64,000 nucleotides of DNA from Puniceicoccales bacterium. Lineage in GTDB: Bacteria > Verrucomicrobiota > Verrucomicrobiia > Opitutales > JAIRLM01. The notes under the pieces were generated by a model. The model was given only the letters and a program-made list of their open reading frames with translations, searched no databases and had not been told where the DNA came from. Position numbers and translations under genes: made by a program. Of the stretch, positions 8,132 to 10,843 are shown piece by piece. The first letter of the stretch is position 1; every line of letters begins with the position of its first letter. Location of the stretch: positions 8,859 through 72,858 of the forward strand of contig JAIRXK010000021.1 of NCBI GenBank assembly GCA_031268315.1, read 5' to 3'.

Positions 8132-10843
8132 ATGTCCGCCATTAACTTATCTCTAAGGAATTCGTCAGCGAGTCCCTCCTCAAAACTGCATCGAGGTCTC
8201 AGTTCTGCGCCAACTAATGCCCATGCGCAGACCGCAGTCCATGTGAATTTCACAAAAATGAACTTTGGAAATTGTCGGAAAACTTTTTCAACTTTAATAG
8301 GAGATGCCGGGTTTTTCAGTGAAACAAAAAGACTTCTACTGTCAACCATCGCCTGGACATTGGGCAATGATGGTGTAAAAAGTGTCGCAGGGATGTTCAA
8401 CATAGTTGCGGAAAAAGGCAACGCAATTAATTTCGATCAATTTCCAAGCGGCAACGCGAAAATATATGGGCTGCCTCATCCTTCTCAAATTCCAATTAAA
8501 ATTACCGCCTTCAGAATGTCCGATGATGATCCAAATTGCTTTTTCTCAAGCAAAAAAGAGAAGGTAGAATTCACCATAGGCAATAACGGCCGCGCTCAAT
8601 TTAGCCACGGCAAAAATAAACCATTGCCCGGCGGCTTCTATAACGCAAAAAATGCGGCTGGCGTATGCTCAACGATAGCCGTCTTCGGTGGAAATGTCTA
8701 CGAGGTTCCACGCGACGATCGTGGAGTAATTAAGCAAAATTCAAATATCAACGGCAATACAATAGAATTAATTCCATTGGCCAATGGCAGCAACGACAGC
8801 CTGTTCTATAATCGGCAAAATTTTAATGGATCTATCAAGTGGAATGTTACCGATCCAATAGGAAAGGAAATTTTTAAGGGACCCATGAACCCACCACAGT
8901 CCAATCTGCCCACTTCTGTGAATCAAAATCCATCGACCCAATCGGCAGTTTCACCCAGCTCGAGGTTTTCCCCTCCACCTACGGATCCTCATTCATCGCC
9001 GAATGTGCAACCATTGACGAATCTGCAATCATTGCCAATTTCACGGTACTCCAATGCAAATTGGAATAGTTTTCCTCTACCCAAAAATAATATTCATAAT
9101 TTCGCACCAGTGCAACAACTCCAAAAGGTCGCCACGTTCACTGCATTCGCCATGAGTAATGATGATCCAAATTCCGTCTACATTCCTCAGGGAAGAAAGG
9201 AAGCGAGCATGATGACTTTTAGGATCTATCCCAACGGCACCGCAAAATTTGTTAGGGCCCAGAAAAATGCCACTTCATCATCCACGGAAGTAACTGTAAA
9301 TAATGGCTTCTATAACATCACAGACGAAAGCACTGGAATGCACTCGACAATTGCTATTTTCGAAGGAAAAGTTTATAATGTTTCCCGTGATCAAAATACG
9401 AACTTACACAGAAGCGGCGATGGTGCGTTAATTTTACTCAGTTTAGACGGAAAAAGCGAAGCGCATTATTACCCAAACGGAGAGCATAAATGGAAAATTA
9501 AGTTTGGAGATAAATTTTTCCCATTTATTCCTGATAAACAGCAAAATCAATCAAAAGCCACTTCAAGCGCCTCTCACTTTAATCCGCATACAAATGAATC
9601 GTCAAGTGCTGAAAATCCCAATGTAAAACTTTCTCTTTTCCCGAGAAATAGTAAGAGGTATCGATCTTTAAGGGCAAGCAATTTGACGCACAAAGTAACT
9701 GCTTGGCGAATGGGAAACAATGATCCAAATTGCAGGAGAGATAATAGCGAAATAAAATTCGCTATAGACGCAAATTTCCGTATTATAACAAATGGGAATT
9801 CCCCAGTGTTTGACGGCTTTTATAATATTGCAAATGACGACAACACATGCGCAACAATTTGTGTTATTAATGGATATGCTCACAATGTTAAATATGATCA
9901 TGCTAGCGGATCCATCATTAGCGATATAGACCATGGCGAAGTTAGAGTTTTTATATCAGATATATTTGGAGATGAACTTTCTATTGCCATCAGCCAGGAT
10001 GGCGATCAATATACTCTGTATGAAAACGGGAATGTCTTACATTGGGGAAATATGACTGGAAGACCATCGCAACTTCGAAATGAAAAGCGCAAATATACGA
10101 ATATAAAATTTGATAAATTTCCGAATAACACCAAATCCTATCAGCCATTGGAGGCTGGAATGACCTGTGATAATATAGACTTTCTTTCCGTAAATCACAA
10201 TAATCTAAACGAAATTTTCGGCAAATCTAAAGCTTGCACCATGAATATAGATAGTAGCGGCTATGCCTACATGCCCAATAATTATGCTACCGGAATTAAA
10301 GACGGAATTTATAACATCGTGAGAAATGGAATTTGCGCAACAATTGCCGTCTATGACAGCGTTGCTTACAACGTTCCACGCAATGCAGAGACCGGAGGAA
10401 TTGACGGTATCGATAAAGCTACAAACTGCGGAAAAATTCAAATAGAATCATTGTACGATGGCAGCATTTCGTATTTATACGTAAAAAGTTTCGGGCGGCC
10501 TTTTCTTGAAAAATATCCAAATATTTTCCAAGAAAAGCCAAAGCCAGATAGCTTTTTTGCTCCTGATTTTGGCACATCTCAATTCATAAACCCAAATCCA
10601 CCGCCGCAAGATCAATCGCAATATAATCCGCAGCAATTCTTTCAAAACCCACCGCCGCAATTCAATCCAAATCCGCCGCCTAGTTCTCAACAATTCAATC
10701 AAAATCCGCCGCCGCCTAGTTCTCAGCAATTCTTTCAAAATACACCGCCTAATCAGCAGCAACTCGATCAATATCCGACGCAATTCAATCAAAACCCACC
10801 GACGTCTTATCCATCGCAGTATGCAAATGAGCCACGACAGTGA
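8132..10843 (+). CDS. array paralogue P4: shared N-terminal region + four GFYN modules + Q/N/P-rich tail
   Basis: 2.7-kb ORF. Module cores GGFYNAKNAAGVCSTIAVFGGNVYEVPRD, NGFYNITDESTGMHSTIAIFEGKVYNVSRD, DGFYNIANDDNTCATICVINGYAHNVKYD and DGIYNIVRNGICATIAVYDSVAYNVPRN. The tail reads PPQDQSQYNPQQFFQNPPPQFNPNPPPSSQQFNQNPPPP... Confidence 0.88.
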   Translation: MSAINLSLRNSSASPSSKLHRGLSSAPTNAHAQTAVHVNFTKMNFGNCRKTFSTLIGDAGFFSETKRLLLSTIAWTLGNDGVKSVAGMFNIVAEKGNAINFDQFPSGNAKIYGLPHPSQIPIKITAFRMSDDDPNCFFSSKKEKVEFTIGNNGRAQFSHGKNKPLPGGFYNAKNAAGVCSTIAVFGGNVYEVPRDDRGVIKQNSNINGNTIELIPLANGSNDSLFYNRQNFNGSIKWNVTDPIGKEIFKGPMNPPQSNLPTSVNQNPSTQSAVSPSSRFSPPPTDPHSSPNVQPLTNLQSLPISRYSNANWNSFPLPKNNIHNFAPVQQLQKVATFTAFAMSNDDPNSVYIPQGRKEASMMTFRIYPNGTAKFVRAQKNATSSSTEVTVNNGFYNITDESTGMHSTIAIFEGKVYNVSRDQNTNLHRSGDGALILLSLDGKSEAHYYPNGEHKWKIKFGDKFFPFIPDKQQNQSKATSSASHFNPHTNESSSAENPNVKLSLFPRNSKRYRSLRASNLTHKVTAWRMGNNDPNCRRDNSEIKFAIDANFRIITNGNSPVFDGFYNIANDDNTCATICVINGYAHNVKYDHASGSIISDIDHGEVRVFISDIFGDELSIAISQDGDQYTLYENGNVLHWGNMTGRPSQLRNEKRKYTNIKFDKFPNNTKSYQPLEAGMTCDNIDFLSVNHNNLNEIFGKSKACTMNIDSSGYAYMPNNYATGIKDGIYNIVRNGICATIAVYDSVAYNVPRNAETGGIDGIDKATNCGKIQIESLYDGSISYLYVKSFGRPFLEKYPNIFQEKPKPDSFFAPDFGTSQFINPNPPPQDQSQYNPQQFFQNPPPQFNPNPPPSSQQFNQNPPPPSSQQFFQNTPPNQQQLDQYPTQFNQNPPTSYPSQYANEPRQ

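Follow-up and report, generated by a model that had tools for sequence, protein, structure and literature searches.

In Salmonella, the effectors of the WEK(I/M)xxFF group that belong to Salmonella pathogenicity island 2 (SifA, SseJ, SspH1/2, SseI, SlrP and SopD2) share an N-terminal translocation domain, and in YopE, ExoS and SptP an N-terminal type III signal is followed by a chaperone-binding domain that overlaps a membrane-localisation domain. Type III signals are amphipathic, Ser-rich N-termini; in the chlamydial Inc proteins an N-terminal type III signal precedes a bilobed hydrophobic domain, and polymorphic toxins and effectors of type VI secretion systems (T6SS) carry N-terminal trafficking domains such as MIX and LXG. 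The conserved Cys of the N-terminal domains of SspH2 and SseI is S-palmitoylated, and effectors with N-terminal helical membrane-localisation domains, or with S-acylated N-terminal Cys residues, have been described (PMC8100071). Chaperones mask both the chaperone-binding domain of effectors and the hydrophobic segments next to it, and the membrane effectors of secretion systems of types III and IV (T3SS and T4SS) lie just below the threshold for inner-membrane targeting (PMC6110835). Here we consider a stretch of 64,000 nucleotides (the window) from the metagenome-assembled genome (MAG) of an uncultured Puniceicoccales bacterium (assembly GCA_031268315.1, contig JAIRXK010000021.1, positions 8,859 to 72,858), in which five tandem genes of the + strand, P1 to P5, spanning 1602-13520, encode proteins that begin with a common N-terminal region, hereafter the head.

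We interpret the head as a two-part N-terminal address, that is a trafficking domain, of a lineage-restricted family of ten members, and we give this reading a probability of roughly 0.45. The leader, made of the first 32-39 residues, would be the signal by which a Sec-independent machine recognises the proteins for export; the foremost precedent is type III secretion. The 52-residue core behind it would act as a docking surface, for a chaperone or adaptor in the bacterium and/or for a membrane or partner in the host, and docking or targeting may be helped by an invariant Cys and by an exposed 11-residue hydrophobic helix with its invariant Lys. The body would be the cargo, composed of one to four beta modules, with or without a tyrosine phosphatase, and of P/Q/N-rich tails. 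A docking role is suggested because the hydrophobic surface of the core seems too large to be buried in 50 residues and too weak for a bacterial transmembrane segment, and this sub-threshold hydrophobicity fits the threshold published for effectors (PMC6110835). As the ten proteins have no Sec, Tat or lipoprotein signal, and as their C-termini are unrelated to one another, any export signal that they share must lie in the head.

The core comprises 52 residues in each of the five proteins and makes, with the leader, a head of about 90 residues. It is encoded on the + strand at 1698..1853 in P1 (residues 33-84), 4525..4680 in P2 (residues 38-89), 6252..6407 in P3 (residues 40-91), 8243..8398 in P4 (residues 38-89) and 11187..11342 in P5 (residues 38-89); in P3 the delimiting pattern ended early, and the end of the block was extended by hand from the alignment. 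The sequence-only reading had placed a well-conserved block at 8237-8408 of P4: translation of this interval gives VHVNFTKMNF...GMFNIV as quoted there, all five peptide strings that it quoted are correct, and its approximate ranges for the other paralogues contain the 52-residue blocks. That the block is well conserved in the five proteins holds too, since the pattern-delimited block of P1-P5 has a mean pairwise identity of 0.40, where 2000 shuffles give 0.065 and never more than 0.111; on the full codon-aware alignment the value is 0.44. On this alignment, conservation within the N-terminal 240 residues is highest in the head block, amino-acid identity and the proportion of nonsynonymous differences (pN) being 0.27 and 0.54 in the leader (1-37), 0.44 and 0.32 in the head block (38-89), 0.17 and 0.56 in the linker (90-98) and 0.30 and 0.48 in module 1 (99-235). 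The ratio of pN to the proportion of synonymous differences (pS) is 0.47 in the core versus 0.68-0.83 elsewhere, synonymous sites being near saturation in all regions (pS about 0.7). Across the ten paralogues F45, C48, K66, G78 and G81 (P4 numbering) are invariant, and F40, F68 and S71 nearly so. A Cys-protease reading of the invariant Cys was rejected, as no His is invariant.

Structures were predicted with AlphaFold2 for P4, using an alignment of 10 sequences, and, in a second model, for the head and first module, using 5 sequences. In the 10-sequence model the P4 core has a strand at 34-38 and three helices, 45-56, 61-77 and 79-89, the last two separated by a break at G78, and its predicted local distance difference test (pLDDT) score is 74-85. 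In the 5-sequence model the leader and helix 1 come out alike, but 61-89 forms a single unbroken helix; residues 122-240 make up a separate all-beta module. We describe the core as a predicted three-helix unit: F-x-x-C-[RK] belongs to the first helix, a Lys and the 11 hydrophobic residues after it to the second, and beyond a G-[NS]-x-G kink lies the third, which is amphipathic. The run after K66 is uniformly hydrophobic over its 11 residues, with a hydrophobic moment (muH) of 0.14-0.36 that is reached by 40-81% of shuffles, so that the suggestion of an amphipathic helix at LLLS.IAW..G had to be given up; amphipathic character belongs to the helix that follows G[NS]xG, where muH is 0.27-0.61 and, for six of the ten members, no more than 5% of shuffles come up to the observed value.

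The leaders, all on the + strand, are encoded at 1602..1697 in P1 (residues 1-32), 4414..4524 in P2 (residues 1-37), 6135..6251 in P3 (residues 1-39), 8132..8242 in P4 (residues 1-37, predicted disordered) and 11076..11186 in P5 (residues 1-37). Among the first 35 residues of P1-P5 the share of S+T+P+A+N+Q+G is 0.49-0.69 (the P3 value in this range being counted from an internal Met) and that of S+T 0.17-0.40, a non-specific criterion for a type III signal; across the ten paralogues S+T goes up to 0.40, and acidic residues number 0-3, against 0-2 in P1-P5. This composition is kept while the sequence drifts, and the opening alternates polar and hydrophobic residues (MS-x-h-S-L). The leader had been described as about 25 residues of S/P/A/T-rich, probably disordered sequence: the composition and the disorder stand, AlphaFold assigning it no structure (pLDDT <50 at residues 1-31 of P4 in the 10-sequence model and at 10-34 in the 5-sequence model), while its length is 32-39 residues. 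Likewise, the opening MS.[IV].[LI] ascribed to all five is strictly that of P2, P4 and P5, whereas P1 begins with MSVNSL and P3, most likely, with MGIISF. N-myristoylation of P3 (MGIISF) was rejected, as the other members start with MS; the Ser of MGIISF is one position off the N-myristoylation consensus.

Using HMMER with the head and module against 1.84 billion representatives, we obtained 11 matches, ten of which come from the source MAG (LBI69_ tags): the five window proteins and LBI69_03280, 04370, 03855, 03860 and 03870, located on three other contigs. Alignment of the N-termini with these homologues from elsewhere in the genome shows that the five additional paralogues share the conserved head. 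A hidden Markov model (HMM) of the head finds one match per protein, always N-terminal, while the window translated in all six frames gives no further match; the head-only profile detects each protein at E 1e-37 to 1e-43. The 11th match, P0127, a 5423-aa protein of another organism, was rejected as a member: it has a hydrophobic Sec-like N-terminus and no head, and of its 45 repeat-level matches the best covers profile positions 110-161 only. A 'DDPDGPC' strand-turn motif is common to its near-identical repeats and to the beta module, a resemblance that we treat as motif-level similarity and not as family membership. No relatives were found in a scan of one genome per species with the head and module of P4, or in scans of JGI metagenome contigs with LBI69_03860 and with a four-sequence alignment. 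The five-sequence alignment also gave no match when 5.8 billion proteins were searched through a word index, though the MAG's own proteins are in that collection, a miss that we attribute to the limits of this index and to the shortened public gene calls, which hid the family. The head has no match in Pfam, NCBIfam or PADLOC; against PDB, the best sequence-profile match has an E of 0.8, and Foldseek with both models found nothing at E<0.001. There is thus no family or fold match that would place it in a known enzymatic fold; such a placement is what the sequence-only reading had named as telling against itself. On these searches the head appears to be an orphan domain of a single known genome; it is new as a sequence family, and its arrangement is of a familiar kind. 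One contig of 17,160 bp carries three of the additional members, LBI69_03855, 03860 and 03870, which probably form a second array; in each, a long linker, acidic or Pro-rich, connects the head to a single module, and the Kyte-Doolittle value of the more hydrophobic head helix is 1.75-1.92.

Several observations weigh against an address. No small chaperone-like gene is found in or beside the array, where open reading frames (ORFs) of at least 80 aa only overlap the genes in other frames, and no secretion system is known for the MAG. The Inc-like proteins of the window, presented below, share neither the head nor the composition of the leader, so that the head marks this family and is no tag of effectors in general. 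As a criterion the composition of the leader is weak and non-specific, and in the three members that diverge most Ser/Thr is scarcer and acidic residues are more frequent. AlphaFold confidence is modest (mean pLDDT 62-65) and draws on 5-10 sequences, all from one genome. Finally, a conserved N-terminal domain in a paralogous family could equally lack any trafficking role. The original proposal of an 'address' is thus retained in part: the head is a separate N-terminal unit, present once per protein and the only terminal feature common to the ten, while no chaperone-like gene lies in the array or at its borders, the segment is not transmembrane by the genome's own standard and the helix put forward is not the amphipathic one.

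We consider it possible, if somewhat unlikely, that the core is a family-specific functional or structural domain, acting as a cap, in oligomerisation or in binding a partner together with the modules, without any role in export, and that the leader is a low-complexity spacer. The compact helical unit predicted at a pLDDT of 74-85 would suit such a domain, as would its five invariant residues, which are such as folded domains have, and a beta module always comes after the head, by way of a short or a long linker; the lack of an adjacent chaperone gene and the absence of the head from the other effector-like proteins of the window point the same way. However, the ten proteins have 19 modules for 10 heads, and the internal modules, which are never accompanied by a head, do not need one; moreover, a domain of 50 residues could hardly bury a second helix whose 11-residue run is hydrophobic throughout, and the head is strictly N-terminal in proteins that look host-directed and have no other export signal.

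In four of the window's five proteins, all except P4, no other stretch is as hydrophobic as the head segment. The 19-residue Kyte-Doolittle maximum of the head is 0.85-1.47 in the window's five, with a summed Hessa value of +4.6 to +9, and 1.19-1.92 in the other five paralogues, with a sum of +1.8 to +6.6, compared with 2.2-3.0 on the Kyte-Doolittle measure alone for the bilobed hairpins of neighbouring ORFs and of LBI69_00555. With these hairpins of the genome itself as yardstick, the head segment is far from a classical transmembrane helix. Neither a Sec h-region nor a Tat motif (no RR.[FLIV]) nor a lipobox is present in the ten proteins, whose 10-residue Kyte-Doolittle maximum within the first 35 residues is 0.1-1.8. 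It is in our view improbable that the hydrophobic helix is a signal-anchor in the inner membrane of the bacterium, with the modules in the periplasm or at the surface of what would be a surface or adhesin family. Positive residues do stand before the hydrophobic run (the invariant K66, often followed by K/R), modular beta repeats with Pro-rich linkers resemble surface proteins, and the three short paralogues reach Kyte-Doolittle values of 1.75-1.92 and Hessa sums of +1.8 to +3; nevertheless, an anchor is possible for these three members only, the values of the window's five falling well short of those of the genome's genuine membrane hairpins, the G[NS]xG turn and the residues beyond it hold conserved polar or charged positions (N/S, D, K), and a tyrosine phosphatase of cytosolic type would be an unusual periplasmic cargo.

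Hardly to be expected at all is a similarity that lies mainly in the DNA (gene conversion between tandem paralogues or a shared 5' recombination cassette) and reflects no specific protein function. In its favour, DNA identity of the block is up to 0.77, the upstream regions can be aligned as well and the P4/P5 block has a low pS. Against it, the conservation holds at the protein level in another five paralogues, encoded on three further contigs, conserved positions with two-fold codons (F, K, C, N) should account for part of the low pS, and the all-pair pS of about 0.68, near saturation, versus a pN of 0.32 indicates purifying selection on the protein. Between P4 and P5 the block (8243-8398 versus 11187-11342) has a pS of 0.37, compared with 0.77 in the leader and 0.63 in module 1, a difference that may come from gene conversion over a short tract or be an artefact due to two-fold codons.

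Using an HMM iterated from the first module, we found 19 beta modules of about 120 residues in the ten proteins. P1 (1602..4052, 816 aa), an ORF identical to the MAG protein LBI69_02500, is composed of the head, one module, a middle region, a protein-tyrosine phosphatase (PTP) domain and a P/Q/N-rich tail. P2 (4414..5916, 500 aa, GTG start) has the head and two modules (residues 107-233 and 335-427), as does P3 (6135..7895, 586 aa from the ATG at 6135; residues 105-223 and 325-449). P4 (8132..10843, 903 aa) carries the head, four modules (residues 104-226, 316-447, 503-615 and 663-783) and a P/Q/N tail, and P5 (11076..13520, 814 aa) the head, three modules (residues 104-216, 369-476 and 531-651) and a tandem-repeat P/Q/N tail. 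There are three modules in LBI69_03280, one followed by a PTP domain in LBI69_04370, and one in each of LBI69_03855, LBI69_03860 and LBI69_03870. Linkers between modules are P/Q/N/S-rich, and in six of the ten proteins (P1-P5 and LBI69_03280) the modules are followed by P/Q/N-rich tails that derive partly from DNA tandem repeats. Such repeats occur at 3809-3894, 10592-10749, 11876-12022 and 13147-13387, with units of 21-36 nt, up to 7.3 copies and 65-91% matches; they encode P/Q/N-rich linkers or tails, for instance NPPTNPQQFNP in P5, and are likely hotspots of length variation. The bodies had been called variable, which is true of their module number (1-4) and of the PTP domain present in two of them, although all share one and the same repeated beta module.

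The phosphatase domain of P1 (3213..3518, +), of the protein-tyrosine/dual-specificity type, contains HCNGGMGRS at residues 599-607 (3396-3422). It matches Pfam Y_phosphatase with 23.7 bits for a cutoff of 20.9, DSPc and Tc-R-P below their cutoffs, PTP structures of PDB weakly, and XopH far below cutoff. With its HCX5R(S/T) P-loop, this C-terminal domain is placed by its sequence in the protein-tyrosine phosphatase superfamily. A query with the middle region and PTP domain of P1 finds relatives in the same MAG only, where this type of phosphatase occurs in at least four copies with three N-terminal arrangements: LBI69_04370 has, like P1, a head and one module before it, LBI69_00555 has a leader of about 35 residues, an Inc-like hairpin (Kyte-Doolittle 2.3) and a PQ linker, and LBI69_04380 consists of the PTP domain alone. 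As it stands behind either the head or an Inc-like hairpin, the phosphatase is one cargo found with N-terminal parts that can take each other's place, a membrane address among them. That the head is a homologue of the Inc-like hairpin in LBI69_00555 was considered and dropped, hhalign giving a probability of 0.1%.

The array is flanked by genes of an amino-acid ABC transporter (27-1413) and, on the minus strand, by mutS (13786-16272), the product of which has its nearest relatives outside the source MAG, at most 61% identical, in Puniceicoccales or Opitutaceae. Its GC content is 40-43%, compared with 49-53% in these housekeeping neighbours; over the window as a whole, the ABC transporter, mutS, an mnmE-like gene (51985-53367) and the ORF at 53502-55639 are at 49-53%, and all orphan, effector-like genes at 31-43%. 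Intergenic gaps in the array measure about 220-360 bp. After an A/T-rich tract, a TTGAC(T/A) box is kept in all five genes, 43-50 nt upstream of the proposed starts: TTGACT, resembling a -35 element, at 1555..1560 (47 nt upstream of the P1 start), TTGACT at 4369..4374 (45 nt, P2), 6092..6097 (43 nt from the ATG at 6135, P3) and 11030..11035 (46 nt, P5), and TTGACA at 8082..8087 (50 nt, P4), all on the + strand. A GGAG- or GTAG-like stretch lies downstream of the box in four of the five genes, P4 being the exception. The P3 ORF opens at GTG 6120, but this codon falls within the promoter spacing and ATG 6135, which is also the public gene call, is therefore favoured as the start. The upstream regions 1414-1601, 4215-4413, 5935-6134, 7932-8131 and 10876-11075 can be aligned with a mean column identity of 59%, and a further GC-rich element, with the consensus GGGAATA.C..CCTCTTCGGCAA, is conserved about 110-140 nt upstream of the start of these genes.

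Public gene calls begin at residue 11 of P2, 43 of P5 and 77 of P4, that is 10, 42 and 76 codons downstream of the starts proposed here. We consider these calls too short, because the upstream residues [VI][DNS]F.K..F..C[RK] are conserved at the protein level in all ten paralogues, including those without a Met at this position. About 36 stop-free codons per gene in DNA of about 41% GC would arise by chance with a probability near 0.1 per gene, as estimated from base composition. The long N-termini of the array genes are in all likelihood genuine. This is an annotation problem, as three of the five genes lose some or all of the head in the public calls, and the domain is easily missed.

The organism shows signs of living inside a eukaryotic cell. 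Putatively endosymbiotic Opitutales (families LL51 and UBA9783) have been described in a study of termite-gut MAGs (PMC11257099). At least eight orphan proteins of the window have bilobed hydrophobic domains of 50-70 residues, with 19-residue Kyte-Doolittle values of 2.3-3.0, like those of chlamydial Inc proteins: the ORFs at 17945-18409 (+), 21359-23557 (-), 23961-39665 (+), 39987-40874 (-), 47632-48342 (-), 48665-49507 (-), 49790-51943 (+) and 55735-63972 (-). The domain is N-proximal in some of these proteins and at the extreme C-terminus in others. Their abundance, striking for Verrucomicrobiota, suggests life in a host-derived compartment and exported membrane proteins. Two of them are giant paralogues, 23961-39665 (+, 5234 aa, without a Pfam match) and 55735-63972 (-, at least 2745 aa), the second of which begins close to the end of the window and may be truncated; by eye they are alike over long stretches, they have in common a GSGKSK P-loop-like motif and a DEIH motif, and each ends in a bilobed hydrophobic domain. 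Between 39987 and 46970 (-), co-oriented orphan genes encode alpha-helical repeat proteins, one of which matches MgtE_N (PF03448) with 28.2 bits for a cutoff of 25.9. The orphan ORFs 16823-17362 and 18361-19767 share a paralogous segment (RSAGESAFDEKAWIENCKA versus RSADESAFDGKAWIENYKA) and form another local duplicated family.

With its PTP domain, P/Q/N-rich tails and Inc-like neighbours, the head family itself looks host-directed, and low GC, tandem-repeat tails and TTGAC-type promoters of its own add to an effector-like context. If the head is an address, it marks an effector family of ten proteins, including two tyrosine phosphatases, and offers an experimental handle on protein delivery into a eukaryotic host by a non-chlamydial bacterium of the Planctomycetes-Verrucomicrobia-Chlamydiae (PVC) group; if it is merely structural, this is an ordinary family of orphan paralogues. 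A more specific form of the address reading, speculative and decidedly unlikely in our estimation, sees in the head a new kind of effector address, in which a disordered leader is combined with a mini helical hairpin of deliberately sub-threshold hydrophobicity and an invariant Cys, the protein staying soluble or chaperoned and then docking on, or shallowly inserting into, a host membrane, perhaps after S-acylation by the host. Were this true, the head would, together with the Inc-like neighbours, speak for a chlamydia-like, vacuole-remodelling lifestyle outside Chlamydiae, and would be a sequence tag predicting part of the secretome of an uncultured PVC symbiont.

Compared with the systems already described, the family resembles polymorphic toxins in having a conserved N-terminal marker before repeats and variable C-terminal domains, and the P1 phosphatase weakly matches the polymorphic-toxin PTP family PF22785. 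Unlike polymorphic toxins and T6SS effectors, its heads match no Pfam family, and the window holds no immunity or secretion-apparatus gene nearby. The layout of chlamydial Inc proteins is similar, with a leader (about 30-50 residues) that precedes a helical element (about 50 residues) and the cargo; by contrast, the head has one 11-residue run instead of two hydrophobic lobes of 20 residues, and Kyte-Doolittle values of 0.85-1.9 against 2.2-3.0. The LRT domain of BteA and the 4HBM domain (PMC8100071) are also small N-terminal helical bundles before a cargo, with basic and hydrophobic residues in or around loops, but they are four-helix bundles of about 130 residues, whereas the head has three short helices in about 50, and Foldseek gave no match at E<0.001.

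The head is also like the layout of YopE, ExoS and SptP, where a disordered, acid-poor and Ser-rich leader and a hydrophobic element below the transmembrane level, both within about 100 residues, likewise precede the functional domains; the head differs in having no small acidic chaperone gene next to it, in a leader of 32-39 residues and in a core that is predicted to be a folded three-helix unit and not an extended segment wrapping a chaperone. As in the Salmonella WEK(I/M)xxFF group, an N-terminal region of about 100 residues with a conserved Cys is common to several proteins with different cargo, and the combination of export and localisation found in the Salmonella region may hold for the head as well. 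A pattern search found no WEK(I/M)xxFF in the ten proteins, which show no sequence or profile similarity to that group and whose bodies, unlike those of the Salmonella effectors, are homologous to one another, and no T3SS gene is recognisable among the ORFs of the 64-kb window. With the Salmonella group, YopE/ExoS and the LRT domain of BteA as its nearest parallels, though apparently a member of none of the systems compared, the head would work most like the shared N-terminal regions of type III effectors.

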